64,000 bases of DNA, taken from positions 46,923 to 110,922 of the IMG/VR virus record IMGVR_UViG_3300032516_000009; one strand, given 5' to 3'. Below, piece by piece: positions 11,601 through 38,205 of this stretch. The translations under genes were made by a program, and so were the position numbers. The notes under the pieces are model-generated. The model saw only the letters and a list, made by a program, of their open reading frames with translations. It was not told the origin of the DNA and searched no databases. The stretch's first letter is position 1, and each line of letters opens with the position of its first letter. This stretch comes from a virus.

Positions 11601-12584
11601 GGCCTGCTGACCAGCTCCTAGCCACCCCCAGCCCGCAATCGTCATCGTGGCCTTGTCAATGATGGCCACATTTTCGGAAGTCCAACATGCAGCGTAAATA
11701 TACGTACTGTCAACAGCTAAATCACGAACGCGGTCGATTGTAGGGAGCACAGTCCTCAGGTCAACTCGTTTAACCACGGACAGCGCAGGGCCCCCATTCA
11801 TCGGCAACATCTTTACGACCAGGCCAGAACCGGCAAGGCTGTTGGAGGTGTCGCTGACGGTTGTTGACTCGGCCGCGTAGAGATAGGTTCCATCCGACAC
11901 GAGCGAGCGAGGCGAATACAGACCTGATCCTTTGTCTTGTGGAGCAACAATCAAACCTCTACCCGCAAGTGCTGAGTCAGGTGATGGAATACGGTTAATT
12001 GACGCAACGGTTTGCTCTATACTTGTGCCTGTTAAATCTCCATCGGCTGTAAATCCGCCACCCGTAGGATCTTGTGCGGTCCATCCAGTTGATATTACTT
12101 CTCCTCCTCCCACTGCCCATGTCAGTACTTGCCCTATTCCTGGTGTACAACTTAATGCAGCATTGCCTTGAATACCAACTACAGTTTGATTCGTACTGGT
12201 GCCACTCAAATCACCACCAGCTGTGAATCCACCAGTAGCGGTTACAGCTGTTATTCCTGCTGGTCCTTTAGGCCCAATAAATCCTGGTGGACCTTGGAAT
12301 TGTCGAGCGAGAGAATCTATTGTGCCTTTCTGGACGTATCGAACTCCAAATTCATATGCAGTTTGTCCAGTAAATGGACTTTTAACTTCTAAGAACGATA
12401 ACTGCGATAAATCATGGGATCCAGAAGTGATGCCCAAACCTGTTAAAACTTGAGAATATATAGTAGAACTCATAAGTGTCGCATAAGGATTGGATAAAAT
12501 TTCATCAGTGCTCAGGAGTATGACTCCTTGCACTACATTGAATAGACCTGAAGCAATTTTCTGTACACCTACAGTTGTAGCCAT
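8670..12584 (-). CDS. Large virion fibre/receptor-binding-like protein with multiple beta-propellers
   Basis: Short GPP collagen stretch, GGDLSGT/DGDLTGT repeats, then YncE/NHL-like beta-rich repeats. Confidence 0.65.
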   Translation of the reverse strand: MATTVGVQKIASGLFNVVQGVILLSTDEILSNPYATLMSSTIYSQVLTGLGITSGSHDLSQLSFLEVKSPFTGQTAYEFGVRYVQKGTIDSLARQFQGPPGFIGPKGPAGITAVTATGGFTAGGDLSGTSTNQTVVGIQGNAALSCTPGIGQVLTWAVGGGEVISTGWTAQDPTGGGFTADGDLTGTSIEQTVASINRIPSPDSALAGRGLIVAPQDKGSGLYSPRSLVSDGTYLYAAESTTVSDTSNSLAGSGLVVKMLPMNGGPALSVVKRVDLRTVLPTIDRVRDLAVDSTYIYAACWTSENVAIIDKATMTIAGWGWLGAGQQATSVCADGAGNFYCYGNGTPKGIAKFSTVACLGQPPSTITRVASYNARGRFIRYGGGYIWFTQGGMFDGTGTQKVDPGTMTLVVADGTTAALSSCLAFGDLWISDGTQVQRLSTVDLSSLAAVTLPNASATSEIALGPDSAGTLNTRLYVTDEDSAFVWVIDPNTNTVEATFTPGEFHSEGAAAIGNIAYIGGFLPGIQGSRTGIYYVNYPDGGSGLVGYVTEQAYGSVPKRVASSGRLDLLEGLQGQYKPGVGYVPIVGAERGQSRVVCGHMLLDRTYNPSAQKWEGPYAWMCREGVSDILVHDLDTDSSHYSIPLRTGLGADSRPHTLLMTPNYVWVLTNLPNLVKIDRNTWDVLEYGIPIPSPDFRYGGQGLAWDPVGNRVLTTLEHDSGIVIEIDAETNQVKRHDLVLGEEGRGIIVVGSAAFFFGTANVFKFDLASWSSSTSLPIPSATSNRVRAICEKGIIFFVSERGTNLCRFDPTTFSIIDSITIQGPTYDLCYEADTPTIMVTMDYVGIQNITVPFGTMALGDFWSQNAVLRGVLFDPSWDYIYWIAQDETGEATWCSTYPGAGSYVVNNFEDYRPGNLDWMNFGSPKGDMSVDQRNYAPVPVLRSIKGMPVADMTNAAVGKVLTVVHDIPTAPKGVDYDSSHGKLIITDSSSSILYLYSGETSVHKVDMSYPALFGLVTKGGRVTHDETHIVIANDSDSMITLVRKSSFDGQYYTLAGYGSCGRYVTNGNVLGVAISGDKIYAVSSGTTEAFNSSVRRFAKSDLLRCWGDYKSQMNAEATTTNPGPGTEMVDCCIGGGFLWVAGGTSKKIFKINLGTLAIVSTYTHASETISGLVYASDGSGGWHLWACTGVGGNALKFDISTFPAPGSLLATVALPGCANAANIVGGGGYVHVSDAGGTGKVYLVDARFLTVTPSSCGPGLVLAGLAYKSTPLVWTAINSGGTAGLTKSWSSYVGTFLGTLKLDYV

Positions 12585-21028: not shown

Positions 21029-21790
21029 TTATTGCTCAATAAAACTATGGCATTTTGGATGAGTTTTTCGATATCTAGCTTTTGTTCTATTAGCTATGCA
21101 TCGTTTACATCGGTAGAGAATATGCCCAGTATTTCGTACATATGTTTCATAGCATTCTGTAAATGGTACGAGTCCGTGTTTCCCACATGAAACGTACCCA
21201 TCCACTTCTCTTCGGAAAGCAGAAGTGGCTTTAGAAAGTGCTAAGCGAGTAGCTTGAGAACACGGTTTACCGATTTGTTGTAACCTAATCTTCTCACGCC
21301 ATTCCAACCACTCCGGTCTAGAAAACACTTCAGATAACGTAGCCGAGATTTTGGCTTTTACAATCGGATCATTAACTATGGTACGCATCTTTTCTCCATG
21401 TTTTCGTCGATACTCAGGATCATTCCAGACATAATTCGGATCTCTCCACGGATTTTTTCGTTCTGGATTAGGTAGATATTTACCGCCTTTTGCTAAATTA
21501 AATCCCTTTTCCGGATTCCTGGCATCATAAAATTCGATCCATTTTTCTTCAGCTAAATTGGCCGCTTCTAATGTATTACATGTCTCCAATATTTCATGAG
21601 AAAATGCATCTTTCCCATATTTACGAATAGCATTCCAGAAATGAGCGCATCTTCTACCCATACCCCTCTTACATGCGTTGTAAACATGTTCATTCCAGCG
21701 TTGAAGCATGCGCTTCTTTGTTAATCCAACGTATTGACGTCCAGACTCAATATGAATATGACAATAAATTGTCCATTTTGAAGATTCCAT
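21029..21790 (-). CDS. GIY-YIG homing endonuclease (Seg-like)
   Basis: TIYCHIH...YVGLT...RWNEH...AIRKYG...GFNLAKGG. Confidence 0.85.
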   Translation of the reverse strand: MESSKWTIYCHIHIESGRQYVGLTKKRMLQRWNEHVYNACKRGMGRRCAHFWNAIRKYGKDAFSHEILETCNTLEAANLAEEKWIEFYDARNPEKGFNLAKGGKYLPNPERKNPWRDPNYVWNDPEYRRKHGEKMRTIVNDPIVKAKISATLSEVFSRPEWLEWREKIRLQQIGKPCSQATRLALSKATSAFRREVDGYVSCGKHGLVPFTECYETYVRNTGHILYRCKRCIANRTKARYRKTHPKCHSFIEQ

Positions 21791-22334
21791 TCTTAAACTG
21801 TACCAGATCAACAATCTTCAGAGAACGGCAGCACCGCATCCCCGTCTCATAAAATTGAAACGCTGGCTCATGAAAATCATTTGATTTGTAGCAAGAACTG
21901 ACGGCGTGAGCCCACCACCCGCCTTTTAAAGTATAAGGCCAGTCACGACCTTTACGTGAAATTACCCATTCTTCAACATTTCCAATTAAGTCATAAACTC
22001 CGCTTGAGGTTCTACAATTAACATATGACCCTGACCTTGAACCCTGCCATAATTCATCATGTCGCCAATTTTTGGACCAAGGAATCCATTGTTTGTCGTT
22101 ATTGCATGGTCCGCTAGAAATTTCGCAAGCGGTGTCCCATTCATATTCAGTGCAGAGCCGCTTACCACGCTCCTTACACCATGTCTGAGCATCAATGGCT
22201 GATTGCATAACTAGCGGAAACGCCCCTTTAACATTGGGCGCTTCATATTTATCTATGCAAAAATATTTAATCGGGGCCATGTCCGCTGGACAAAGCCCCA
22301 AAAAATTAACTACTACAGCGATTAAATCCCACAC
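21747..22334 (-). CDS. FGE-sulfatase (SUMF1-like) domain protein
   Basis: GKRLCTEYEW, GVYDLIGNVEEWV, KGGWW, GMRCC. Confidence 0.85.
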   Translation of the reverse strand: MWDLIAVVVNFLGLCPADMAPIKYFCIDKYEAPNVKGAFPLVMQSAIDAQTWCKERGKRLCTEYEWDTACEISSGPCNNDKQWIPWSKNWRHDELWQGSRSGSYVNCRTSSGVYDLIGNVEEWVISRKGRDWPYTLKGGWWAHAVSSCYKSNDFHEPAFQFYETGMRCCRSLKIVDLVQFKNGIFKMDNLLSYSY

Positions 22335-22423
22335 TCTAGTAGACTACATTCATCAAAGATTATAGCAGTTATAAGTTGGGTATCGAAATTATCGTTTTCA
22401 ATTTCTTATTGCTATTTCTAAGT

Positions 22424-23047
22424 ATGGAGACAATAATTCTGACATGCGAAAAATGTGGCAAGATTTTCGAACGTAATGCATCATTGTATAGATCTGATAT
22501 AAATCGAGGTCGGAGTAGAACGTTTTGTTCCAAATTATGCATCGGGATAACAGGCGCCCCACCTCTTAAGACTAAATGCGATAACTGTGGCAAAGAAATC
22601 ATCAAAACACTTAAAGATGCCAAGAAGTCTTTAAGTGGTAGACATTATTGTTCTATCTCTTGTTCTGTATCAAAAAATAATAAATATAGACTAAATAGGT
22701 CAAAAATACGAATCTGTATTGATTGTGGTTCTACATTTAATAAATGTAGAACCACAAGATGTTCTCATTGTCTTAAAGAATGGAGCAATAGATTATTGAA
22801 ACGGAAAAAGTCAGAAGCTAATAGACAAGATATTGGTTCTCATGCTAGATACGTTGCCAATAAAAATGGGTTATTAGAAAAATGTATGATATGCGGATAT
22901 TCATTTCATGTAGACACGTGTCATCGTAAGGCAGTTAGATCATTTCCTGGCGATACGTTAATTAGAGACATAAACAACATTTCAAATTTATTAGGATTGT
23001 GTAAAAACCATCACTGGGAATTCGATAATAAATTGTTAGCGCTCTAG
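22424..23047 (+). CDS. HNH endonuclease with N-terminal Zn-finger repeats
   Basis: CxxCGK repeats; VDTCH...NLLGLCKNHHWEFD. Confidence 0.85.
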   Translation: METIILTCEKCGKIFERNASLYRSDINRGRSRTFCSKLCIGITGAPPLKTKCDNCGKEIIKTLKDAKKSLSGRHYCSISCSVSKNNKYRLNRSKIRICIDCGSTFNKCRTTRCSHCLKEWSNRLLKRKKSEANRQDIGSHARYVANKNGLLEKCMICGYSFHVDTCHRKAVRSFPGDTLIRDINNISNLLGLCKNHHWEFDNKLLAL

Positions 23048-23182
23048 TGGGGGATTGGGACTCGAACCCAGTGCTTGTTAGGACCACATATTGCTTCCTT
23101 TAATGGGAAGCGAGGAATGGACCTGGGAGCTTGCGCTCCAGCTTGTATGGCTGGCGAGGGAACCACACCCTCTGTATCCCCC
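23048..23182 (-). ncRNA. tRNA-framed Y-RNA-like RNA A1
   Basis: Acceptor GGGGGAT/ATCCCCC, D-like arm and TTCGAGT T arm enclose AGGTCCAT-TCCTC-GCTTCC...GGAAGC-AATAT-GTGGTCCT-AACAAGC. Confidence 0.8.
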
Positions 23183-23186
23183 GAAC

Positions 23187-23312
23187 GAGATCAGAGATTG
23201 GTTGAACGTTCGAGACGTGGTACTTTTGGTTTTGTGCTCCACATTGAGAGCACAAAGGCTGACTTAGACAGTTAGCTTGTTAGCACCACAAATTGAACGC
23301 CCAACTGATCTC
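23187..23312 (-). ncRNA. Y-RNA-like RNA B1
   Basis: GTTC-AATTT-GTGGTGCT-AACAAGC...two hairpins...ACCA..AGTACCAC-GTCTC-GAAC; G:U pairs fix the strand. Confidence 0.8.
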
Positions 23313-23346
23313 CTACTCCGTGACGTGATCTGTCCGTCGCTTTTCC

Positions 23347-23375
23347 ACTTTACACTTGAAAAACCCAAGTGTCAA
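23347..23375 (-). promoter_or_regulatory. Sigma70-type promoter for RNA B1/A1
   Basis: TTGACA-17 nt-TAAAGT. Confidence 0.65.
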
Positions 23376-23386
23376 GTGTCAAAAAA

Positions 23387-23514
23387 TTTGGTGTCCGAGA
23401 TGCGGCGCTGGACTTGGTTGCAATACCGGGTTTGAACCGGCGACTTTCTGTACCAAAACAGATGCCCTACCAACTGGGCGAATTGCGTGTTAGCACCGCT
23501 AGTTGGACACCGAA
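23387..23514 (-). ncRNA. Y-RNA-like RNA B2 enclosing a tRNA-Pro(TGG)-like cloverleaf (23415-23487)
   Basis: GTCC-AACTA-GCGGTGCT-AACACGC [D, anticodon and T arms, ACCA] AGCGCCGC-ATCTC-GGAC. Confidence 0.8.
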
Positions 23515-23612
23515 AATATTTTACACCGAGACTGGTTTATTACGCAAGGTGTAGCGAAATAGTGGAATCGAATAAATTCCCAACATTTCGACTTTTAATT
23601 CTTGCTACAGGT

Positions 23613-24227
23613 ATGAAAATGATTACTCTAGTATGTACGGGATGTGGGAAAAATTTCCAACGAAGAGAATCGTGTTACAAAGCAAACATAGCTCGTGGAA
23701 GAATTAAAGTTTACTGTTCGAGAATTTGTCTAGGGGAGTCTCAACGGGTTCCGATAGCTGAGATTGAATGTAAAAACTGTGGAAAAATAATAGATAGATT
23801 AAATAAAGATGTGAACAGGTCTAAAAATCATTTCTGTTCGATATCATGTTCTACAGTATATAACAATAAACATCGTCAACATAAATTATATACATGTGCA
23901 TGCGGTACTAAATTCATTAGACATAATGGAAGTATAAAATGCAACAAATGTATAGAAACATGGAAAAATAGATTGTTAAAACGAGAAAAATCTAAAGTCG
24001 CTAAACGCGATATTACAGGCAGTGCAAGAATAATAGCAAAAAAACATGGGTTACTAAAACAATGTGCAGTTTGCAGTTATTCTCTACATGTAGACGCGTG
24101 TCATCGTAGATCAATAAATTCATTCCCCGACAATACACTAATTCAAGAAATCAATAATGTAAAAAATCTAATTGGATTGTGTAAAAATCATCATTGGGAA
24201 TTTGATCATGGACATCTTACAATTTAG
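23613..24227 (+). CDS. HNH endonuclease, paralog of 22424
   Basis: VDACH...NLIGLCKNHHWEFD. Confidence 0.85.
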   Translation: MKMITLVCTGCGKNFQRRESCYKANIARGRIKVYCSRICLGESQRVPIAEIECKNCGKIIDRLNKDVNRSKNHFCSISCSTVYNNKHRQHKLYTCACGTKFIRHNGSIKCNKCIETWKNRLLKREKSKVAKRDITGSARIIAKKHGLLKQCAVCSYSLHVDACHRRSINSFPDNTLIQEINNVKNLIGLCKNHHWEFDHGHLTI

Positions 24228-24303
24228 TAGCGGAGGTGAGATTCGAACTCACGATCTCTTGGTTATGAGCCAAGTGGGAACGACCAGACTTCCCTACCCC
24301 GCA
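24228..24303 (-). tRNA. tRNA-Met(CAT), initiator-like
   Basis: CTTGG-CTCATAA-CCAAG; 1:72 mismatch, but only two G:C pairs in the anticodon stem. Confidence 0.8.
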
Positions 24304-24309
24304 ATATTT

Positions 24310-24423
24310 GGAATTGAACGTTCGAGGTGCGACGCTTTTGGGAGTCGGTCATCATTGTGTGACCGACTGTATATTCCTTATGAGGGAATGCGTGTTAGCG
24401 CCGCGAATTGAACATCCATTTCC
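24310..24423 (-). ncRNA. Y-RNA-like RNA B3
   Basis: GTTC-AATTC-GCGGCGCT-AACACGC...two hairpins...CCCA..AGCGTCGC-ACCTC-GAAC. Confidence 0.8.
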
Positions 24424-24433
24424 ACTTTACATT

Positions 24434-24976
24434 TTAGCACCGATTGTTTACGGTGACAAGAATTGATCGCCAAGGCTGGGATCGCCATTCCCCAAATATC
24501 CCCATCTCTGTTACCAGTTTTATTACCGGTATGAACTGTTTCCAGGCTTCATACGGCATATCATTGCGAACGTAATTACACCTAATGCATGCCGGTATAA
24601 CATTATCTTTCATATGAGCCTTATTATTGTCTATCCTATCTAGTGTTATACGTAAAGATTTGCTTCCGCAGTATGAACACCCGTTCTGAATCAGATCGCG
24701 AACGAACTCGCGGTCTAAATCATTACCCTGCCTACCATGTCTCTGATCCGACTGTTTACTATCGTGCACAATAAACGTATGCGGATATTTTTGTCGTCTT
24801 AGGGACCTATACTCTTTTTCCTGTATGGCAGTCTTATTTTTCTGACATTTATTGCATACTCTAGCTCTATGGCCATTCCATATACGACCACGTGACCCTG
24901 TAGGTCTAAGCCAACTCTTGGGAAACGCAGTAATCTTTTTCTTTAGAAGACATTTAGTACAGACTCTATGATCCAT
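24434..24976 (-). CDS. HNH-like endonuclease
   Basis: CSYCG...LDRIDNNKAH...NVIPACIRCN. Confidence 0.8.
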   Translation of the reverse strand: MDHRVCTKCLLKKKITAFPKSWLRPTGSRGRIWNGHRARVCNKCQKNKTAIQEKEYRSLRRQKYPHTFIVHDSKQSDQRHGRQGNDLDREFVRDLIQNGCSYCGSKSLRITLDRIDNNKAHMKDNVIPACIRCNYVRNDMPYEAWKQFIPVIKLVTEMGIFGEWRSQPWRSILVTVNNRC

Positions 24977-25039
24977 ACTAACAAGCACTATGAAAGGTTT
25001 AGCACATGCTTGTTAGGTCTCCCTGATGGACGCGAGTAG

Positions 25040-25166
25040 CGGGGTGTTCCGGATTCGAACCGGTGCTTGTGAGGACTACCGAGTGCTTCCTTAATAGAAG
25101 CGAGGAGCAATCCTGGTTGTTCCCAATTGCAAATAACTGGTGGGCTGCCATTGCCCTGTACACCCC
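25040..25166 (-). ncRNA. tRNA-framed Y-RNA-like RNA A2
   Basis: Acceptor GGGGTGT/ACACCCC, D and T arms; AGGATTGC-TCCTC-GCTTCT...GGAAGC-ACTCG-GTAGTCCT-CACAAGC. Confidence 0.8.
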
Positions 25167-25170
25167 AAAA

Positions 25171-25257
25171 TGTAAACGTTCGAGACGCGGTGCTTGGTTT
25201 CAGCTTCTTTACCTTAGCAGGGTATTGCTTGTTAGCACTGCAATTTGAACGCCTACA
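25171..25257 (-). ncRNA. Y-RNA-like RNA B4
   Basis: GTTC-AAATT-GCAGTGCT-AACAAGC...ACCA-AGCACCGC-GTCTC-GAAC. Confidence 0.8.
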
Positions 25258-25279
25258 TCAAACTTTACATTGAGCCATA

Positions 25280-25855
25280 TTAAATGCGAGTGGCCCCGCC
25301 CGGGAAGATTTGATATCCGATTTTCTTCCCGTGTTCGATGAAAATCTGAACTGACATGGCCATATATGACGAAACTATTGAAATAAATGGCAAATGTTCC
25401 CCATTTTCACAGGTAGCAGCCCCGGCATTAGTTTCATCGTCAATTTGGAAGCTTTCGTCCCAAATGGATCGACCGAATTGTCCATCGGCAGCCAGCGCGC
25501 CATGAAGACATGGAACCTTATTCTGGCGTGCGAAATTTTGCACCAGCCTTCGAGCTTCACCATTATCTAAACAATCAACGATAAGATCTGACTGTGAAAG
25601 AAGTTGACTATCGTTATTAGCTACGAGTTTGTGAGGAATTACCTGAACCTTCAAACCAAATAGAAATTGCAGTGTCTGCTGAAGTGCCACCACCTTGGCC
25701 TTCCCGACGGAAGATTTGGCGTGGAACTGGGACATTACGTTCTTCTGTTCAATTCTATCAAAGTCAATAACGCGGATGGACACGCCTAGATTCCGCAGCA
25801 AAGGAACCAAATGAGAACCCAGTGCCCCAACACCAACGATCGTTACAATCTTCAT
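25280..25855 (-). CDS. ThiF/MoeB-family E1-like adenylyltransferase
   Basis: IVGVGALGS, IDFDRIEQKN..SQ, GKAKV, IVDCLDN, candidate catalytic Cys in ATCE. Confidence 0.9.
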   Translation of the reverse strand: MKIVTIVGVGALGSHLVPLLRNLGVSIRVIDFDRIEQKNVMSQFHAKSSVGKAKVVALQQTLQFLFGLKVQVIPHKLVANNDSQLLSQSDLIVDCLDNGEARRLVQNFARQNKVPCLHGALAADGQFGRSIWDESFQIDDETNAGAATCENGEHLPFISIVSSYMAMSVQIFIEHGKKIGYQIFPGGATRI

Positions 25856-26088
25856 TTATTCTTCTTGGTCTTTATGCGTTTACGAACATTAGTCTTTCCG
25901 CGCCACCGGCAATTTTGTTCGTGTTTCTTAGCGCTCTTCTCAGCAGATTCCTGGGTGAAGAACTTATAACTGGATCCCCAATAAGCTTCACATACCCCAT
26001 CGAAATCTGCTGAGAAGCACCCGTGTCGATTGTCTCGCCCATCACAGCGGTATTCCCAATCACGGGTCTTTTTACGTGCAGTAGCCAT
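25852..26088 (-). CDS. Small basic Cys/His protein between Ubl and E1
   Basis: GAGGA RBS, ATG 26088, ATGA overlap with E1. Confidence 0.6.
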   Translation of the reverse strand: MATARKKTRDWEYRCDGRDNRHGCFSADFDGVCEAYWGSSYKFFTQESAEKSAKKHEQNCRWRGKTNVRKRIKTKKNK

Positions 26089-26098
26089 GAATTCCTCG

Positions 26099-26467
26099 TT
26101 ACCCCCGGAGCCGGCGCCGACGTCCGAATGGCGTCTTAGGTCGAAGCATGCAACGTGCGACAGGCACGGCCTCATTCGCCGGGAACCTATCGACCACGAA
26201 ATCCGTGAAATCCGCATTCGGATCGGCCGGAATTCCCGGCACGCTCCCAGCACGTACAGCCTCGGTCGCCCAACGCTTAATGTCTGCGTCACTGGCGTCC
26301 CTAGTTACTGGATCGGGCAAATCCCCGTTGGCGCCATTGTAGGTTACGTTGAGTCTGGCCATGTCGGCTTCCATGACCTCAGCAACCATACTCATGCGCT
26401 CTCCAGGCTCCCCAACTAGGTCAACAGCCGCCTCAATCCTATCAACCGCGTCGTTTCGATCTACCAT
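26099..26467 (-). CDS. Ubiquitin-like (beta-grasp) protein with C-terminal extension
   Basis: AGGAGGAG RBS; strand-strand-helix-strand pattern ending LRPKTPFG-RRRRLRG; operon context. Confidence 0.65.
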   Translation of the reverse strand: MVDRNDAVDRIEAAVDLVGEPGERMSMVAEVMEADMARLNVTYNGANGDLPDPVTRDASDADIKRWATEAVRAGSVPGIPADPNADFTDFVVDRFPANEAVPVARCMLRPKTPFGRRRRLRG

Positions 26468-26513
26468 TTGCGTCTCCTCCTGTTATTTACACCGGAAGTC
26501 TTGAAATTTACGA

Positions 26514-26726
26514 CTATCGTGAATGAATATATTCTTTCCACATATCATCCCAATAATCAGCGTATTCTTTTGAACAATCTTCGCAGAACCAATATCCCGC
26601 ACCAACCTCTTCATCAGCATAGGCCGTAAGAGACGGGTGAAACGCTATCTCTTTCGTATCGCCACATCGTTCACATTCGACTTCCATCACCTCAGTAACT
26701 ATGGCAATGGCGTCTGTGGCATTCAT
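26514..26726 (-). CDS. Small Zn-finger protein
   Basis: CERC...CEDC. Confidence 0.6.
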   Translation of the reverse strand: MNATDAIAIVTEVMEVECERCGDTKEIAFHPSLTAYADEEVGAGYWFCEDCSKEYADYWDDMWKEYIHSR

Positions 26727-27235
26727 GTAACTGGATGCAACTGCTGGATCATTTGTTCCATATATTCAAGCTGATCCTGCGGCCCAATAACTTCACGCCG
26801 CGTATCACCTGCTTTAACTAGGATGATGATTTTATCTGATGCAAGATGATTCAGTAAATCTTGTGATTTATCAAAAGAGCCCGGAATAACCTCCCTGGCA
26901 ACCAATGCCTGCCCTCCGGGATAAATAATGGCTCTATCATTTGCCAATGTCACATCAAATACGATCCCCAAGGAGTCAGGTCGATCCTTATTAGTAAGTA
27001 ATCCTAATCGCCAAAGACAACTCCATGCTCTGCATCCAGATGGGCGCTTGTTGTAAATAGCGCAGCCATCTTGGCCAACGTGCGGACATGATTCGAATGC
27101 GGGTTTATTGATTTCTCCAACAGCCTGAGAAAAACAACAAGCCGTACAGGGGCCACAGCAGCGATTCTTCATCGCTTGCTTGATCGAATGCTGCATCTGT
27201 TTTTTAGATGCCCTGCGAGCCGCTCTATTACTCAT
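26723..27235 (-). CDS. YkgJ-like CxxCxxCC cysteine-cluster protein
   Basis: CGPCTACC...CPH...CAIYNKRPSGCRAWSCLW. Confidence 0.8.
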   Translation of the reverse strand: MSNRAARRASKKQMQHSIKQAMKNRCCGPCTACCFSQAVGEINKPAFESCPHVGQDGCAIYNKRPSGCRAWSCLWRLGLLTNKDRPDSLGIVFDVTLANDRAIIYPGGQALVAREVIPGSFDKSQDLLNHLASDKIIILVKAGDTRREVIGPQDQLEYMEQMIQQLHPVT

Positions 27236-27439
27236 CTAGCTATCCTGTATTGATTCGACGATTGCGACACTACATTCTCCGATAATGCTATCTTCTAAAC
27301 CATCACCCGTAACATAAGTTGTGCTGTTATTGTAGCTTACTGGAGGGTTCCCGCGTAAAACTAAGAGATGCCACCCGCAGCGGCATTCCCATTCGTCATT
27401 GGGCCCATTTCTTCCTATCCATTTCCATTTGTGTGACAT
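27236..27439 (-). CDS. HxW-CxxC-C Zn-finger microprotein with C-terminal tag
   Basis: MSHKW...CRCG...ECSVAIVESIQDS. Confidence 0.65.
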   Translation of the reverse strand: MSHKWKWIGRNGPNDEWECRCGWHLLVLRGNPPVSYNNSTTYVTGDGLEDSIIGECSVAIVESIQDS

Positions 27440-27645
27440 TATTCGTTCTGTATTGATCTAACAATTTTTACATCACATTCATCATACATATTTTCAACTG
27501 GTTCTCCTATAATCGTTAAATCAATTTCTGGAGATAACCCCGGTCTTGTCATAATGTAACTGCCGCATCTTTTACATGTCCATTCATCGTACATGGGGGT
27601 AGCACCCTTGTGCACTCTGGTTGATTTTTCCCATTCATGTGCCAT
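27439..27645 (-). CDS. HxW-CxxC-C Zn-finger microprotein with C-terminal tag
   Basis: MAHEW...CKRCG...ECDVKIVRSIQNE. Confidence 0.65.
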   Translation of the reverse strand: MAHEWEKSTRVHKGATPMYDEWTCKRCGSYIMTRPGLSPEIDLTIIGEPVENMYDECDVKIVRSIQNE

Positions 27646-28015
27646 ATGAGGCTTTACGTAGATCGTCGACCCAATCTAAACAATCACTCAATTCCGATTC
27701 CAGATTTGATACTTGATAATCACATTTATCCGGTCCTTTCCACATAACTAATGAAACATAATACTGATTGATTATCCACCAGTTGAGTCTTCGACCTAAA
27801 GCCGCTTCGACTGCGGCAAAAGTCGTAATATCTTCCCAGGAAGGCCCAACAGGCCCGCTACCTGGATGGGAATGAGCAAATCCATCCAAGGTGTGCCTGA
27901 ATTTCCAAAATTGATTCCATAATTCAGTACTATCTGGTAGACATGAAGTACTGCGATCCGGTGGTATGTGCCAGTATAATGGTTCACCTTTACTAATTAT
28001 TACACCTGCTTCCAT
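27635..28015 (-). CDS. JAB/JAMM (MPN+) metallopeptidase
   Basis: N-terminal Glu plus HSHPGSGPVGPSWED (HxH-x-S-x2-D). Confidence 0.85.
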   Translation of the reverse strand: MEAGVIISKGEPLYWHIPPDRSTSCLPDSTELWNQFWKFRHTLDGFAHSHPGSGPVGPSWEDITTFAAVEAALGRRLNWWIINQYYVSLVMWKGPDKCDYQVSNLESELSDCLDWVDDLRKASYGT

Positions 28016-28071
28016 AACTAAAAATACATGAATGAAATAACCATTTTCGGATTTTAATCATTATTTCAGTT

Positions 28072-28857
28072 ATGAGAAAATGGCGAGACGATCAATTGAT
28101 CGAAGCTGTTAAAGCATCCCGTAATATATCAGAAGTAATAACTAGATTATATGATACGGAATGCGGTGGTCATTTTAAAACAGTTTGGAAATATGTTAAC
28201 CAATTACAATTAGATGTATCTCATTTTTCTAAGATCCCGGGTCCTACCGGTGTTGAATACCAGCCACAATATACGGATTCAATTCTATGTGAAAATAGTT
28301 CTATAAGTCATGGTACATTGCGTGCGTATTTATTACGTAATCGGATTATTCCATATACATGTATTCTATGTAATAATGACGGATATCATAATGGCAACAG
28401 GTTAGTATTACAATTAGACCACATAAATGGCATTAAAAATGATAATAGGACAACGAATCTTAGATTTTTATGCCCAAACTGTCATAGTCAAACGAAGACT
28501 TTCGGTAGAAAATCGCCAAAACCCTGCCCGAAGGGTCGAATTGGATCACTAAAATCGCCATGCCCACCACGCAGAAAATTAGACCATTCAAAAATATTAT
28601 CATTATATGAACAAGGCATAAGCATGCCAATTATAGCTCATCAATTTGGAGTTAAACACGCCGCTATACGGTACATATGTAAAAAATCACATATGTATAA
28701 GGGCAGAAATGAACATAGAGACCTAGTTAATTTGCGTAAACAAGCAATCTCCATGGTAAACTCCGGTCACAGTAGACGCAAAGCAGCAAGTTTACTTGGG
28801 GCTTCTAATAATTCAGTGGCTCGATGGATACGTGAACAAAATCACATCACTTCATAG
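28072..28857 (+). CDS. HNH homing endonuclease with two HTHs, inserted antisense in the operon
   Basis: LQLDHINGIKNDNRTTNLRFLCPNCHSQT. Confidence 0.9.
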   Translation: MRKWRDDQLIEAVKASRNISEVITRLYDTECGGHFKTVWKYVNQLQLDVSHFSKIPGPTGVEYQPQYTDSILCENSSISHGTLRAYLLRNRIIPYTCILCNNDGYHNGNRLVLQLDHINGIKNDNRTTNLRFLCPNCHSQTKTFGRKSPKPCPKGRIGSLKSPCPPRRKLDHSKILSLYEQGISMPIIAHQFGVKHAAIRYICKKSHMYKGRNEHRDLVNLRKQAISMVNSGHSRRKAASLLGASNNSVARWIREQNHITS

Positions 28858-29039
28858 ATTCTACGAGTCACTTGGGGAATTGAAGCTTCCCGGAACTTGT
28901 AGTCCGTGCGTTCGTCTACGGCCTCGATTTCAAGCATTGACCCGTCGGTGAACTCAATGGAGCCATACTTAATGTCTAGGTTTACACTCTTGATGGTCTT
29001 ATTTGCGATCTTCTCCGCAATCTCATAGCTTTTCGTATA

Positions 29040-30017
29040 TTACCAATCCTCGTCTTCATCTCTATCATCGTCCACGTGTCTGAACACATGAAGTACCCTC
29101 TTGTGTTCCGCTTCTCTAATTACACCCGGAAGGGATTCTAGCGTGAAGTACGCATCCCCTCTCTCCCCAGTGTGGTGATCAGTTAAACAAATACCAGCTT
29201 CAATTATCTGAAGAGTGCGTGCATCACACGTACATTCGAATCGTCTTTGGTTTATCCTGAATGTAACAACCATTTCACCACGATTGTATGAACATCGGTG
29301 ATCTAAGTACTCAGCGCCTCCAATAGCCAGAGCCGCTCGAGCCGCTTCCCCGAAATCGACTTGTGCCATGGTGCGACGACCAGCGGCATCACCAAGCTGT
29401 TTGACTAATTGCGCTCGCCGTTCTTCCTTTGCTCGCCGTTCTTCCTCTTCTACTCGGCGTCGTTCGGCTTCAGCTCGGCGTCGTTCGGCTTCAGCACGAT
29501 ACCAAGTCTCCATTCTGAACGCTGCATCGAGTGCTGGCGAAACACCTTGAACATCATTGACAGAATCAGCTCTGTTTTGATATGCTTCTGCGACTTTCTC
29601 TTCCGGTCCTAATGGCATTTCTTGATTTTGGTAGATCAGCGGGCCATCGTCACAAACTCGACCGGCAGCAATACGAACAAACCTATCGAGTCCAGGTTCG
29701 ATCAAATAAACTTGTTCTGAACAACTGATAAGTTGTGTGGGATCCGGGTCAACTCGAACATTATCGAGGACAATCCGATCTCCAATTAGATACCCATGAA
29801 CTACGGACCTTAGGATTTCTGGTATTGCGTCAGCAGTTCCTTTAACCGTAGCTTTGCGAGCGGAAATTTTGAAACTAAACCATCCATGCTCGCGGGGTAA
29901 TGCCCCGTCAATATGCCATACACGATCGATAGATCGGAGAGATCTACTTCCAGTCCAAGGAAGAACTGTAACTTCTTCGTTAGATTGTAGTAGATCTCTC
30001 CAACCCATCACTGTCAC
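29040..30017 (-). CDS. Putative E2/UBC-like protein with coiled coil
   Basis: C-terminal AGICL motif then LESLPGVI helix, reminiscent of the UBC GxICL catalytic Cys; coupled to the TROVE-like gene. Confidence 0.5.
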   Translation of the reverse strand: MTVMGWRDLLQSNEEVTVLPWTGSRSLRSIDRVWHIDGALPREHGWFSFKISARKATVKGTADAIPEILRSVVHGYLIGDRIVLDNVRVDPDPTQLISCSEQVYLIEPGLDRFVRIAAGRVCDDGPLIYQNQEMPLGPEEKVAEAYQNRADSVNDVQGVSPALDAAFRMETWYRAEAERRRAEAERRRVEEEERRAKEERRAQLVKQLGDAAGRRTMAQVDFGEAARAALAIGGAEYLDHRCSYNRGEMVVTFRINQRRFECTCDARTLQIIEAGICLTDHHTGERGDAYFTLESLPGVIREAEHKRVLHVFRHVDDDRDEDEDW

Positions 30018-31876
30018 GCAGCAAATGATGGCTTAGCTAGAAGATCCGTTTGTAGGATCGTCTCGACCAAAGATACACGGTGAACCGTGCGACTTACAGT
30101 GGTCTTCGACTGCCCGACCGGAGTAGACGCTACGAGCGCCCTGATCGTACGCGGAATCGCGTACACATCCTCGAACGTCTTTTCATCGATCAAGAAGCAT
30201 GGGATCTTCAGCTGATCTGCCGTGTCCTGAACCGCCCTGTAGTGAGGATTGTTCCTGACTTTGACAAATCCGAATGCCATCGGGTTCAGGCCCGACGCAT
30301 TCACCGCTGCAGTGAATGGCCCCGCTTCCTCATCCCCAATGAACATAAATAGTGTGTCTTCGTTTGGAAGAGGCTGATACTTCATCAAGGCCCTGACGCC
30401 AGCGCCGTAATCGGTCCCGCCGCCCGCGGAAATACCACGGAAGGCGTTCTCGACCCCGGCAGCGGAGGGATGCTTCAAGGGGAGTTCACGTCCTGCCGTA
30501 TTGAAGACGGAGATGTGAACCTTATCCGGTGGAAACGCCTGGAGAAACTTAGCTACGTGGCTCTTCGCCTGGACAATAGCATCCTCCATGGACCCGGAAA
30601 TATCAACCATGAAGTAGACTCGGATTCCCTTCATGACTTCCTCTACCGCCTTTTGAACGGCGGTGTCAGCAGCCTCTTGAAGTTTTTCCTTCGTCTGCTT
30701 GTTCTTCACCCTGGATGCGATATTGGCAGCGCGCATGTCATCTGCAGACTTAACTGCCTTTTCCCAACGGTTCTTGACTTCCTGTACCTTCAGTAGGCCA
30801 AGCTCTTCAAGTGTTGGCGTTGCGATGATCAAGTCCTTGTCAGACATGGCCCCGGATTCGATGGCCGCTGTGACGATGGCTCGAGTGAGTCCAACGCTCT
30901 TCGGCACCAGTCCGACAATGCGCTTATACCCGGGCTTCTCCTTGATGATTTGTTCGCAGATCTGCATCTCATTAAGATCGCCCCAGTTGTCCGCCGCCTT
31001 CACCGCTTGTCCGATGGCCATCGTGCGACGACCATCCTTGGCCTGGGACTGCTTCCAGCGCAAAGCTTCAAAGAATTGCGGCATGATAGGCTTGTAACCT
31101 ACCCGACGCGCCAATTCCATGACAGTCGTGCGGAATCCCGCCTTCATAAGCCCCCGCATCAGATTCGGATTGGCCTCTCGGTGTTCCAGCCATTTCGTTA
31201 CAACCTTTGGCCATCGACCGAGGAACGGATGACGAGCCGACTTGCCGAAACCAAGCTCGCGATTGATCTCGGCCACTTGAGGCATGGACAAGATATCGTG
31301 AATACGCAGAAGTAACTTGGGATTTAGGTCCTTACCGTCACGACGAATGATCAGCGCCATGGCTTCTCCGACGTCTCTATAGTCTTCGTCATGAAATGCG
31401 ACGGTGTCACCATCCTTAACCGGATCGCCCTTACGGCTCTGTACAAGCATCAATGCCGCAAGAACGACTTTGAGATCCCGATGCTCCTGAGCGAAAGCGT
31501 AAGACGCCCATCGAGCGGAGAACTCGTTGTCAAGTCGCCAAACCTCAACGACTTGGCGATACATCCAGGTAACAACTTCAGGAAAGAGTCCTGCCGGTCG
31601 GTAGTCACCGACCTTCCTGCGGTCTTCGGTACGAATAGTATTATCGGCCCAAAGAGTACCAATCTTGACCTTGTTTGTCTTTCGTCCAACCTTGGTCAGT
31701 TGATACACAACCTTTTGACCGTTCTCCTCCTTATGGGTTACGGGAGTCCATTTCACTCCAACAACCGCAGTGGGATCGGGAACCACGATCCCCGGCCTTC
31801 CGTGATATGCATGATCCACATATGACAAAATGGACTGAATAGTGCGCTCGGCTGGTCCTAAATTCTCATTTTGCAC
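30014..31876 (-). CDS. Ro60/TROVE-like helical domain plus vWA protein
   Basis: C-terminal VDISGSM...GGGTD...FIGDEE; N-terminal DNEFSARWASYA..E.RDL..VLAAL and LARRVGYKP resemble TROVE motifs; GTG start with AGGAG RBS. Confidence 0.7.
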   Translation of the reverse strand: MQNENLGPAERTIQSILSYVDHAYHGRPGIVVPDPTAVVGVKWTPVTHKEENGQKVVYQLTKVGRKTNKVKIGTLWADNTIRTEDRRKVGDYRPAGLFPEVVTWMYRQVVEVWRLDNEFSARWASYAFAQEHRDLKVVLAALMLVQSRKGDPVKDGDTVAFHDEDYRDVGEAMALIIRRDGKDLNPKLLLRIHDILSMPQVAEINRELGFGKSARHPFLGRWPKVVTKWLEHREANPNLMRGLMKAGFRTTVMELARRVGYKPIMPQFFEALRWKQSQAKDGRRTMAIGQAVKAADNWGDLNEMQICEQIIKEKPGYKRIVGLVPKSVGLTRAIVTAAIESGAMSDKDLIIATPTLEELGLLKVQEVKNRWEKAVKSADDMRAANIASRVKNKQTKEKLQEAADTAVQKAVEEVMKGIRVYFMVDISGSMEDAIVQAKSHVAKFLQAFPPDKVHISVFNTAGRELPLKHPSAAGVENAFRGISAGGGTDYGAGVRALMKYQPLPNEDTLFMFIGDEEAGPFTAAVNASGLNPMAFGFVKVRNNPHYRAVQDTADQLKIPCFLIDEKTFEDVYAIPRTIRALVASTPVGQSKTTVSRTVHRVSLVETILQTDLLAKPSFAA

Positions 31877-32507
31877 TTGCTTTCTCCTGTTTTCGTTTGT
31901 GTGTACGTATCTTATGACAGTTGGCACATACTACGTCACACTTTTTAATTTCATCAAGTAATTGTCTTAATGATCCTTTGAATATGAGCGTACTAACCTT
32001 AGTTATTTTGGTTGAAGGATCACGATGGTCGAAATCCATGACATATGTTGGGTACGTTTCTTTACAGTCCATGCATGGCTGTTCTTTAAATGTTTCAACT
32101 ACATGTTTTAACTTCGCTACCGTTCTAGCCTTTGACAAATATTCACCACGTTTATTTAGATACTCAGCCTTTCTTTTGGAAGATTGACATTTTCGACATC
32201 TAATGCTGCGTCTACCAAGTGACTTTCCATTCCAGCCGAATTCAATTGTGAGTTTCTTACACCCACAGTCACAACATTTAGTATATTTTGGTTCGATAAT
32301 GCCAGATTTCACTGCTTCTCGACATTTTTGTCTATAACGTTCTTCCCGAGCCTTAACAACGTTTAAATGTGATGCACGGTATTCTCTCCTGTAAACAATA
32401 GAACATTGTTTACAGCGAGCATGTCTTTCTTGCCTTGCTTTCGATCTCCAATGGAATTCAGATTCCGATTTTAAAATTTTACATTGGATGCATTGTTTAT
32501 TAACCAT
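31866..32507 (-). CDS. HNH endonuclease
   Basis: PCMDC...MDFDHRDP...KCDVVCANCHKIRT. Confidence 0.85.
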   Translation of the reverse strand: MVNKQCIQCKILKSESEFHWRSKARQERHARCKQCSIVYRREYRASHLNVVKAREERYRQKCREAVKSGIIEPKYTKCCDCGCKKLTIEFGWNGKSLGRRSIRCRKCQSSKRKAEYLNKRGEYLSKARTVAKLKHVVETFKEQPCMDCKETYPTYVMDFDHRDPSTKITKVSTLIFKGSLRQLLDEIKKCDVVCANCHKIRTHKRKQEKASAK

Positions 32508-32545
32508 GAGTTACTATACCATACGATTTCGTTACTCATAATTAC

Positions 32546-32599
32546 ACCAGACTTCACTCGATTTTCGGTCTGCACATCGAAAATCGAGTGAAGTCTGGT
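32546..32599. repeat. 22-bp perfect inverted repeat
   Basis: ACCAGACTTCACTCGATTTTCG-10 nt-CGAAAATCGAGTGAAGTCTGGT. Confidence 0.95.
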
Positions 32600-36149: not shown

Positions 36150-36881
36150 ATGGGGTATCGAACTTGGACAGATAAAGATCTAGAGTTAGCGGTTAAATCA
36201 AGTAAGACCAAATCAGATGTTATTCGTAAACTTGGACTAAAATCCAATAGTTCTGGTAATTTTCAGGTTATCGACATCCATATTAAACGACTCGGGTTGG
36301 ATATAGCACATTTTCACGAAGTCGTATTAGGAAAACCTAGCAAACCGAAACAGATTGAGGATTTATTAATTAAAAACAGTACTTATACAAATACTGGAAA
36401 ACTCAAGTCTAGATTAATTAGAGCTGGTCTTCTTAGAGAAGAGTGTTATGAATGTAAAACAACCACATGGATGGGTAAAAAGTTATCTCTACAACTTGAT
36501 CACATAGACGGTGATCGAAGTAATAATGAATTAAACAATCTTAGACTGTTATGCCCAAACTGTCACTCTCTAACATCAACTTATTCCCGTTCCCGTACTA
36601 AAATGCAGAATAAACTATCAGAAAATAAGTGTAAATGCGGAGCATTTATTTGTCGGCGTTCCAGCATGTGTATTACTTGTGATGCTATTTCTAGGAGAGG
36701 TAAAAATTTAAAAATTAAATGGCCAAACATGAAAACATTACTAAATATGGTGGAAGAAGCCGGATATGTTCAAACTGGTGTTAAATTAGGCGTTTCGGAT
36801 AGAGCCGTAAAAAAACATATTCTCAGAAATAACAAGAACTGCGCACCGAATGGCAGTAGAAAATTGACAGTACCCGAGTAA
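36150..36881 (+). CDS. HNH homing endonuclease with HTH
   Basis: LQLDHIDGDRSNNELNNLRLLCPNCHS; LGVSDRAVKK. Confidence 0.9.
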   Translation: MGYRTWTDKDLELAVKSSKTKSDVIRKLGLKSNSSGNFQVIDIHIKRLGLDIAHFHEVVLGKPSKPKQIEDLLIKNSTYTNTGKLKSRLIRAGLLREECYECKTTTWMGKKLSLQLDHIDGDRSNNELNNLRLLCPNCHSLTSTYSRSRTKMQNKLSENKCKCGAFICRRSSMCITCDAISRRGKNLKIKWPNMKTLLNMVEEAGYVQTGVKLGVSDRAVKKHILRNNKNCAPNGSRKLTVPE

Positions 36882-37023
36882 TGAAGCTGGATCTTTGACA
36901 GATTGAATATCTGTTGCCTTACCATTAGGCTATTCCCCCATTGTAGAGTCAGATGACTCGGCGGGGAAAGGGGACTCGAACCCCCATAGCTTTTGCTTGT
37001 GAGCTTCACGTAGTGGGTACTGC
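36867..37023 (-). ncRNA. YrlA-like RNA C1 (circularly permuted tRNA on the shared module)
   Basis: GTACCC-ACTAC-GTGAAGCT-CACAAGC, then T arm, acceptor closed by a GAGTC/GACTC hairpin, D arm, anticodon-like arm, then AGCTTCAT-TACTC-GGGTAC. Confidence 0.85.
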
Positions 37024-37458: not shown

Positions 37459-37956
37459 ATGTCAGATCAAATTAAGTCATGGGGACAATTGCTCAAAGAA
37501 TGGATGGTAAATTTCTTTGGTGCGCTTTCTAAGAAGCCTAATATCATGCTACTTTACTTGCTTGTAATCGGAGGTTGGGTGTCAGGTATAAAAACCTGTA
37601 ACAAGGTCGATGTTGCCTCCGGAAAAGCTGCTGGGGCAGCTCAAGTAGCAGATGAAGCTAAAAAGACAGCAGAGAACAAGGATTTAGAACAGGCATCTTA
37701 TGAAGCTTTGGCTAAAACAATTGAAGATTTGCAGACGGAAAATGACGCGGTAAAAGAGCGGTTAGCGTTATTATTAGGACATGTCCAGAATATCGCAGCT
37801 CAACCGCCAGCAGTTGTTAGAGTGTTTACTCCAACAGGACCCGTGTCAGCTGCGCCACCTATTAAGCCACCGTTAGTTCCATCTTCAATAATAGATGAAC
37901 CGGCTCCGCCCCCACCTCCTGCATGGGAGACACTCAAATCTCAGATGAAGAAGTAG
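37459..37956 (+). CDS. Membrane-anchored coiled-coil, Pro-rich protein
   Basis: One TM segment, coiled coil, poly-Pro tail. Confidence 0.65.
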   Translation: MSDQIKSWGQLLKEWMVNFFGALSKKPNIMLLYLLVIGGWVSGIKTCNKVDVASGKAAGAAQVADEAKKTAENKDLEQASYEALAKTIEDLQTENDAVKERLALLLGHVQNIAAQPPAVVRVFTPTGPVSAAPPIKPPLVPSSIIDEPAPPPPPAWETLKSQMKK

Positions 37957-38007
37957 AGCCCGCTGCGACTTACGAAATCACTGCTCTACCTGCTGAGCTA
38001 TGTGGGC
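37957..38007 (-). pseudogene. tRNA-Thr(CGT) remnant lacking the T arm
   Basis: D and anticodon arms nearly identical to the 13723 tRNA; 51 nt. Confidence 0.75.
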
Positions 38008-38015
38008 AAAAGCTG

Positions 38016-38176
38016 AGTATCCGAGGAGAAGGACGTTGTCTTTACTCAAGACGGATTGAAAGATCCGTTGCCTATTCCATTCGGCCACTCCGGCAGATTT
38101 AGAGTCTAAAGACTCGGAGCCGGAGGCAGGAGTCGAACCTGCATTTTGTGCGTGTTTGTCCATCGAATCGGATACC
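38016..38176 (-). ncRNA. YrlA-like RNA C2 (circularly permuted tRNA on the shared module)
   Basis: GTATCC-GATTC-GATGGACA-AACACGC, T arm GCAGG-TTCGACT-CCTGC, acceptor CTCCGGC/GCCGGAG closed by a GAGTC/GACTC hairpin, D arm, then CGTCCTTC-TCCTC-GGATAC. Confidence 0.85.
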
Positions 38177-38205
38177 GATAGCGCCAGAGGTTGGGTTCGC
38201 ACCAA

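Follow-up and report, generated by a model that had tools for sequence, protein, structure and literature searches.

The window considered here, meaning the whole 64,000-nucleotide stretch of DNA that was analysed, covers positions 46,923-110,922 of the 110.9-kb IMG/VR contig IMGVR_UViG_3300032516_000009, a viral sequence whose completeness CheckV puts at 26%. On its minus strand, inside an array of 38 tRNA genes that all share that strand (ARAGORN), lies a cassette of five protein genes, encoding a Ro60-like protein, a partner here called p325, a JAB peptidase, a putative ubiquitin-like (Ubl) protein and a ThiF-type E1 enzyme, accompanied by eight structured RNAs that have one module in common. 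A preliminary description made from the letters of the window had marked out five open reading frames (ORFs), and all five are present on the minus strand at the coordinates below. A near-identity DNA search of the phage database gave no match, and a protein search of it found uncultured Virus Rctr197k as the only relative (59% identity), with the same layout of a tRNA array, a vWA protein, several genes, a ThiF-like gene and further tRNAs. Each of the two large proteins, the Ro-like protein and p325, has more than 1200 homologs, on contigs of up to about 660 kb, and 66 related huge-phage loci form the comparison set for both gene order and RNAs.

30014-31876, minus strand: Ro60-like protein, 620 amino acids; VWA_2 by Pfam, Ro60/TROVE at fold level
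29040-30017, minus strand: p325, conserved partner, 325 amino acids; p325 start and Ro-like stop codon overlap
27635-28015, minus strand: JAB/JAMM metallopeptidase, 126 amino acids; motif E...HSHPGSGPVGPSWED
26099-26467, minus strand, likely start 26395: putative Ubl modifier precursor, so named for its Phe-Gly end and synteny
25280-25855, minus strand: minimal ThiF/MoeB-type E1 adenylating enzyme, 191 amino acids; Pfam PF00899, 5.9e-26

Five genes in a fixed order

In 58-62 of the 66 loci the genes for the Ro-like protein, p325, JAB, Ubl and ThiF follow one another in this order on a single strand, and the loci without the full five-gene order are truncated contigs. JAB is syntenic in 61 of the 66, and the Ubl gene always lies between JAB and ThiF (61 of 66). 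The order is fixed although the loci are merely 44-85% identical and the insertions within them vary. The earlier observation that these genes go together is supported by strict synteny across about 60 related huge-phage loci.

Among the individual calls, that of the ThiF/E1 is unambiguous by sequence, given its Pfam match. The motifs GxGALGSH, DxD, DCxDN and TCExG are conserved across homologs, NCBIfam matches are to ThiF, MoeB and UbaA, the best being ThiF and MoeB, no rhodanese domain is present by Pfam, and the E1-E2 models of PADLOC match the protein through their E1 part only (5e-17). The JAB call likewise holds: though the Pfam match is weak (Prok-JAB, 2.3e-3, below cut-off at 18.2 versus 25 bits), each of the JAMM residues (E, HxH, S, D) reaches 95% conservation or more among 47 homologs. 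The Ubl call is upheld in part. In the window, the core of the protein ends at Phe-Gly (Gly codon 26123-26125), after which comes a seven-residue tail, RRRRLRG; in the family (34 homologs, alignment A8), a core of about 75 residues ends in an invariant C-terminal Phe-Gly that is followed by 0-14 unconserved residues. A Phe-Gly end with variable tails reads as the signature of a peptidase-trimmed modifier precursor, and together with the syntenic position it speaks for a Ubl, but comparison of the family with Pfam and PDB profiles gave no HMM (hidden Markov model) match and no PDB sequence match. In two related loci (L025 16248-16568 and L027 7103-7420, plus strand), the tail after Phe-Gly is a small CxxC zinc-ribbon-like peptide, and in phages of this type JAB would release two products.

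For p325, previously taken for an E2-like protein, the picture is likewise divided. The structural model (pLDDT, the predicted local distance difference test, 82.5) has tandem OB-like barrels at residues 14-137, a long helix at 161-208 and a C-terminal alpha/beta domain. The conserved residues are C264, G275 and C277-L278, the last three in a 'GICL' (GxCL) string that resembles the active-site string of E2 enzymes, and the cysteine of that string follows a helix and a four-strand meander, an order of secondary structure compatible with an E2. The cysteine of the earlier claim is therefore present and conserved, but the UBC fold is not recovered: no UBC chain is listed among the Foldseek or VIA-wide matches of p325, which barely cover the C-terminal domain; PADLOC gave no E2/UBC match and Atlas no usable one; and Pfam, run on 34 members of the family, returned coiled-coil noise only. 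A six-frame UQ_con search was uninformative, as its controls were silent. The E2 label is thus tentative.

The 620-residue protein had been described as a TROVE/vWA protein, and its vWA domain is plain. Pfam assigns VWA_2, and the metal-ion-dependent adhesion site (MIDAS) is intact (D425, S427, S429, T488, D515), its residues being invariant across the family, distant members included. The AlphaFold2 (AF2) model, with 34 homologs as input (pLDDT 77; pTM, the predicted template-modelling score, 0.47), divides into an N-terminal beta domain (29-93), a helical-repeat, TROVE-like domain (99-414) and the vWA domain (418-584). When this model is searched against the PDB with Foldseek, the top ranks are taken by TROVE/Ro60 structures, namely 9kop, 1yvp, 9l5y of phage phiLo and 2nvo (Rsr), with E-values of 2e-8 to 5e-5 over about 550 columns and template-modelling (TM) scores of only about 0.3; among the viral models of BFVD, Ro-like and TROVE phage proteins stand at or near the top, and the leading matches of the two sets have E-values of 2e-8 to 1e-6 over about 500-600 columns. 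Language-model (Atlas) features place residues 95-415 in TROVE/DUF2828 clusters (0.85), which is a lead only. A comparison of the family with canonical Ro60 by hhalign aligns 283 colinear columns at an E-value of 0.0025, weak at a probability of 11.8%. A VIA rerun on the model gave a list taken up by vWA domains, and hence is silent on the helical part, while PDB sequence searches with the single 620- and 325-residue queries found nothing useful and the A1 profile matched vWA chains only. Modelled as a complex, the Ro-like protein and p325 scored 0.31 against a mark of 0.32, a result not used as evidence either way. Given the fold-level matches, the weak profile comparison and the lack of a TROVE HMM match, the protein is best called very divergent and Ro60-like at fold level, and not a TROVE-family member by sequence; the earlier label thus survives for the vWA domain and the predicted fold, but not as a TROVE HMM match.

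One RNA module on three tRNA topologies

Eight RNAs with one shared module had been described for this window, and they are indeed found, six at 23046-25255 and two more upstream. The six comprise four covariance-model matches (E 1e-13 to 1e-25) and two capped-hairpin tRNA-like RNAs.

25171-25255, minus strand: Y-like RNA type 1a; covariance model R1, 65 bits, E 1e-13; fold z -3.5
25036-25168, minus strand: type 2 RNA; fold z -3.4; found by the capped-module scan
24313-24418, minus strand: Y-like RNA type 1a; covariance model, 80 bits, E 1e-17; fold z -6.2
23386-23513, minus strand: Y-like RNA type 1b; covariance model, 111 bits, E 1e-25
23201-23303, minus strand: Y-like RNA type 1a; covariance model, 81 bits, E 8e-18; fold z -6.1
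23046-23184, minus strand: type 2 RNA, tRNA-shaped; fold z -3.1; capped module 23073-23124 before the T arm
36865-37023, minus strand: type 3 RNA; covariance model, 20.4 bits, E 0.046; Rfam YrlA, 23.9 bits; arms seen in the fold
38012-38178, minus strand: type 3 RNA with divergent module, short upper stem and permuted body; covariance model, 20.8 bits, E 0.037; by inspection and fold

The module consists of a 7-bp basal helix, an internal loop and an 8-9-bp upper helix, followed by ACA(A/C)GC. Its invariant unpaired bases are a 5' A (within 5' C-A), a 3' CUC (CUCG) and the ACA(A/C)GC itself. In its open form it can enclose a non-tRNA insert, as at 25171-25255 (basal stem, CA../..CUCG loop, upper stem, AACAAGC), although in most module RNAs what it encloses is a tRNA-like body with the arms in their normal order, and a CCA is often encoded. 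The RNA at 23386-23513 is of the latter kind, with a 5-bp acceptor-like stem, a D arm, an arm with a 6-nt loop, a T arm and an encoded CCA, and ARAGORN reports its segment 23416-23488 as 'tRNA-???' (Rfam tRNA, 41.8 bits). Among 71 aligned members, the T-arm motif is found in 54, and D precedes T in 30.

In type 2 RNAs the module is instead a capped hairpin within a tRNA-shaped molecule; that at 25036-25168, for example, ends at the acceptor stem and carries its capped module (25065-25114) just 5' of the T arm. A MAFFT alignment of four such RNAs was out of register, so a descriptor scan replaced a second covariance model. It found 59 capped modules on the operon strand, 58 of them followed by a T arm, as opposed to two on the opposite strand, while shuffled sequence yielded none; some loci have up to six copies. 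With the hairpin deleted in silico, 22 of 53 capped RNAs are read by ARAGORN as tRNA-like, with varied anticodon loops; the RNA at 23046-23184, so treated, is called tRNA-like with a 'tac' loop.

In the third topology, at 36865-37023, the open module closes a permuted body of the YrlA type, made of a T arm, a closed acceptor stem, a D arm and an anticodon-like arm, with the permuted T / acceptor stem / D order seen in the fold at 36872-37016. Both type 3 RNAs are weak by the covariance model (E about 0.04), their module and permuted body having been recognised by inspection and folding, and they lie 5-6 kb upstream, beyond tRNAs and homing-endonuclease genes. The result is a striking case of one module grafted into three tRNA topologies, and the notion of a family of Y-like, tRNA-mimicking RNAs, with tRNA-like bodies and a single module, is in this sense sustained.

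The covariance model, built from seven sequences and run on the window and the 66 loci, gave 90 matches at E<=1, all of them on the operon strand. At E<=1e-3 there are matches in 52 of the 66 loci, so that the module is tied to homologous operons elsewhere, a point on which the preliminary description had proposed a check; their usual place is 0.3-2 kb past ThiF or immediately ahead of the Ro-like gene. Pairing holds in 91.7% of cells across 70 distinct sequences, versus 28-40% in slid controls, and all 16 module pairs show double-sided changes (380 cells), a degree of pairing that is far beyond chance. In three complete or near-complete genomes (377-619 kb), module matches occur beside the operon only. 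A pattern scan of IMG/VR for the junction of module and T arm returned mostly noise, 76 of 80 loci being without validated module or genes; in three loci the module was validated, and all three are on operon-bearing contigs, a sample too small to weigh. That the module defines a new non-coding RNA (ncRNA) family, absent from Rfam, is well supported.

An archaeal-type bulge-helix-bulge intron and a k-turn were also considered for the module, and both were set aside on inspection only, neither agreeing with the loop sizes and conserved bases. At 24970-25035 (minus strand) the CCUAACAAGC motif recurs without the rest of the module, pairing with its complement in a hairpin of 10 bp and no mismatch; this hairpin is just upstream of the HNH ORF at 24434-24988 and touches its start.

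Neighbouring features of the tRNA array

Between and around the cassette genes and RNAs lie other genes, some of which interrupt the cassette itself. The Zn-ribbon, CxxC and HNH genes within it are not conserved in related loci.

26514-27645, minus strand: variable filler genes (translations and PHROG matches); related loci have no homologs here
27439-27645 and 27236-27439, minus strand: two paralogous Zn-ribbon proteins (filler)
26723-27235, minus strand: CxxCxxCC protein (filler)
26514-26726, minus strand: Lar-like Zn ribbon (filler)
21029-21814, minus strand: homing-endonuclease-type gene
22376-23047, plus strand: homing-endonuclease-type gene
23487-24227, plus strand: homing-endonuclease-type gene
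24434-24988, minus strand: homing-endonuclease-type gene
28072-28857, plus strand: homing-endonuclease-type gene
31866-32507, minus strand: homing-endonuclease-type gene
36150-36881, plus strand: homing-endonuclease-type gene

The homing-endonuclease-type genes, of GIY-YIG and HNH types, are scattered among the tRNA and ncRNA genes as well as inside the cassette. Two plus-strand HNH_2 genes are paralogs, and a 130-nt direct repeat (74%) at 22900-23029 and 24080-24209 spans both HNH_2 5' ends and extends just upstream of the second. Within the tRNA array, a 101-nt sub-threshold Rfam tRNA match (26 bits) at 37907-38007 (minus strand) has a normal acceptor, a D arm and the 5' half of an anticodon arm, then extra sequence, and may be an interrupted or intron-bearing tRNA gene; the segment 35914-35982 (minus strand) scores 44 bits as an Rfam tRNA and is not listed by ARAGORN. 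A 1304-residue ORF at 8670-12584 (minus strand), with no Pfam match, sits within the tRNA array in DNA of 54% G+C, the array being otherwise of 41-44% G+C, and an adenylosuccinate-synthetase-like gene (4120-5286, plus strand; Pfam 3e-27) lies at the edge of the array. In a related huge phage (L046, 3273-3648, plus strand), a tmRNA lies in the same RNA gene region, upstream of the Ro-like cassette.

What the cassette may do

Ro60/Y-RNA particles are conserved from bacteria to humans, and their core function is still debated. Because the RNA features and the protein fold both point to such a particle, the evidence leans, if gently, towards a cassette that links a Ro60/Y-RNA-type ribonucleoprotein (RNP) genetically with a minimal Ubl pathway. 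The Ro-like protein would most likely bind the module common to all eight RNAs, whether that module sits at the acceptor end, forms a capped hairpin in the position of the variable arm, or closes a permuted, YrlA-like body. Since the module is carried on tRNA-like bodies, the RNP would display tRNA shapes to tRNA-binding factors, or would tether such factors to the ring protein; Y RNAs tether Ro60 to PNPase (polynucleotide phosphorylase). On the protein side, JAB would trim the variable tail and expose the Phe-Gly end of the Ubl of about 75 residues, and the ThiF-type E1 would adenylate that end. The strongest candidate for the Ubl carrier that comes next, or for a target-binding subunit, is the co-translated p325, with its OB-like, presumably RNA- or protein-binding N-terminus and its C-terminal domain bearing GxCL. 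The Ubl may then be conjugated, and the RNP and the Ubl pathway may act in one process.

Several observations weigh against this reading. No TROVE HMM (PF05731 and PF25045) matches the Ro-like protein in Pfam at E<=0.01 or the six frames of its own contig at E<=10, and such a match is also missing in distant members of the family; the same six-frame search does detect the Ro gene of mycobacteriophage Bxz1 and gives matches in control genomes. The hhalign probability against canonical Ro60 is merely 12%, and the Foldseek TM score of about 0.3 and the AF2 pTM of 0.47 are low. On the RNA side, the best scores of the Rfam YrlA model (RF02553) are 23.9 and 23.3 bits versus a gathering threshold of 69, and the canonical Ro-site motif GNCGAAN0-1G was not found in the module RNAs, although YrlA-like traits are present in the ends paired as a long stem with an internal loop and in the same-strand gene beside a Ro-type gene. 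The label of the Ubl comes from its end signature and gene position, and no E2 was recognised in the cassette, so that conjugation is here a proposal. Finally, RNAs and operon both lie within a tRNA array, and their linkage may partly reflect the clustering of RNA genes.

Because no E2 was recognised, a sulfur-carrier role is a serious rival, even if an improbable one. Ubl, E1 and JAB would in that case be a carrier set of the ThiS/MoaD type, like TtuB-TtuC, SAMP2-UbaA, Urm1-Uba4 or QbsE-QbsD-QbsC, and would supply a thiocarboxylate for thiolation of the phage tRNAs or tRNA-like RNAs, with p325 and the Ro-like protein holding the RNA substrate. The E1 is of the minimal ThiF/MoeB type, with best NCBIfam matches to suit; JAB-trimmed carrier precursors are known from sulfur pathways (QbsE/QbsD and CysO/Mec); the cassette lies inside a tRNA array; and both the E1 and p325 have conserved cysteines. 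However, the carrier ends in Phe-Gly and not in the typical Gly-Gly, the E1 is without a rhodanese domain, and no PP-loop enzyme of the TtuA/NcsA type (PF01171) was found above cut-off in the contig itself, in three near-complete relatives or in Rctr197k, although host enzymes could substitute.

Comparably improbable is that these are neighbours without a shared function, the RNAs being processing or decoy elements of the tRNA operon, the vWA protein no RNA binder, and the Ubl set an unrelated one for host takeover or assembly. The low TM scores and the missing TROVE HMM match would suit this, as would the position of everything within the tRNA gene region and the two RNAs that lie 5-6 kb off behind tRNAs and homing-endonuclease genes. 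Against it stand the five-gene order, held across such divergent loci despite variable insertions, the RNAs, which in 52 of 66 loci lie close to one end or the other of the gene set and in three large genomes are confined to that position, and the Ro60-type folds that are the top structural matches.

Least likely, and doubtful at best, is the idea of the preliminary description that the Ro-like RNP is an RNA-guided, E3-like adaptor whose tRNA-mimic baits recruit host anticodon nucleases for tagging with Ubl by p325 as E2, which fits the synteny but meets with no UBC/E2 match for p325 (Foldseek, VIA-wide, Pfam, PADLOC, Atlas), is conjecture in everything beyond synteny, and comes with no evidence of a target and no identified host nuclease. 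The same low odds attach to its wider form, an RNA-programmed tagging of proteins that grasp tRNA bodies (host tRNA-cleaving defence nucleases, for example) through the E1 and p325, or an attachment of the Ubl to the RNA itself.

Returning to the Ro60/Y-RNA-type RNP with a minimal Ubl pathway, its parts may be set against known systems. In bacteria and in 22 phages, YrlA genes adjoin Ro60 (PMC4201824), and the phiRo60 protein of a Thermus phage binds both phage Yrl RNAs and host PNPase (PMC12135203). The cassette resembles Ro60/Rsr with YrlA, as found in the Ro of the Bxz1 group of mycobacteriophages and in phiRo60 of phiLo with Yrl1/Yrl2, in its predicted helical ring-type domain with a MIDAS-bearing vWA domain, in its adjacent ncRNA genes on the same strand, in the long closing stem with an internal loop joined to a tRNA-like domain and, for two of the window RNAs, in the permuted T / closed-acceptor / D order of YrlA. 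Unlike Ro60, the window protein has no TROVE or vWA_Ro60 HMM match and has an extra N-terminal beta domain; and whereas a GNCGAAN0-1G near the 5' end is the proposed Ro site of YrlA (PMC4201824), the module has an A/CUC loop and ACAMGC, and Rfam YrlA fails on it. Canonical rsr loci, moreover, are paired with RtcB/RtcA or PNPase, whereas here p325, JAB, Ubl and E1 are always present, along with as many as eight RNAs per locus that fall into three topologies. It is this invariable company of p325, a putatively JAB-trimmed Ubl and a minimal E1 that sets the cassette apart from known Ro60/Y-RNA RNPs.

Similarly, prokaryotic operons of Ubl, E1 and JAB, with or without an E2, have been described (Iyer, Burroughs and Aravind, 2006; PMC1779556). 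Like these, and like Bil and the Cap2/Cap3 of CBASS, the cassette has an adjacent ThiF-type E1, a JAMM protein and a small protein with a conserved C-terminal Gly and presumably cleavable tails. In contrast to Bil and CBASS, it is phage-encoded and not a host defence, its Ubl ends in Phe-Gly, it is tied to a Ro-like protein and ncRNAs, and its E1, of only 191 residues, has no fused E2, with no UBC-fold E2 recognised and PADLOC matching the E1 part only. With TtuB-TtuC-TtuA, SAMP-UbaA-HvJAMM1 and Urm1-Uba4 it shares a Ubl/E1/JAMM trio in which a classical E2 is missing, and a presumed functional tie to tRNA; unlike them, it lacks a Gly-Gly end and a rhodanese domain, and the phage genomes searched yielded no PP-loop thiolase. 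A literature search found no published description of a Ro60-like protein combined with Ubl, E1 and JAB and with tRNA-mimicking RNAs, in keeping with the earlier remark that no such characterised system was recognised.

More broadly, a large, uncultured clade of huge phages, with more than 1600 protein homologs, keeps a divergent Ro-like protein, multi-copy tRNA-mimic RNAs and a Ubl pathway as one unit. Such a compact system of five genes plus RNAs makes the role of the tRNA-like domain of Y RNAs directly testable, and likewise makes testable whether Ro-type RNPs couple to the modification of proteins or of RNA. Further, the cassette supplies a putative Ubl pathway encoded by a phage, just as bacterial systems of this kind, such as Bil and CBASS Cap2, are coming to light as antiviral. 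Should the RNA-programmed tagging of tRNA-grasping proteins, or the attachment of the Ubl to the RNA, improbable as they are, prove true, no earlier case of ubiquitin-like targeting guided by RNA would exist, and phage counter-defence would gain a new principle.

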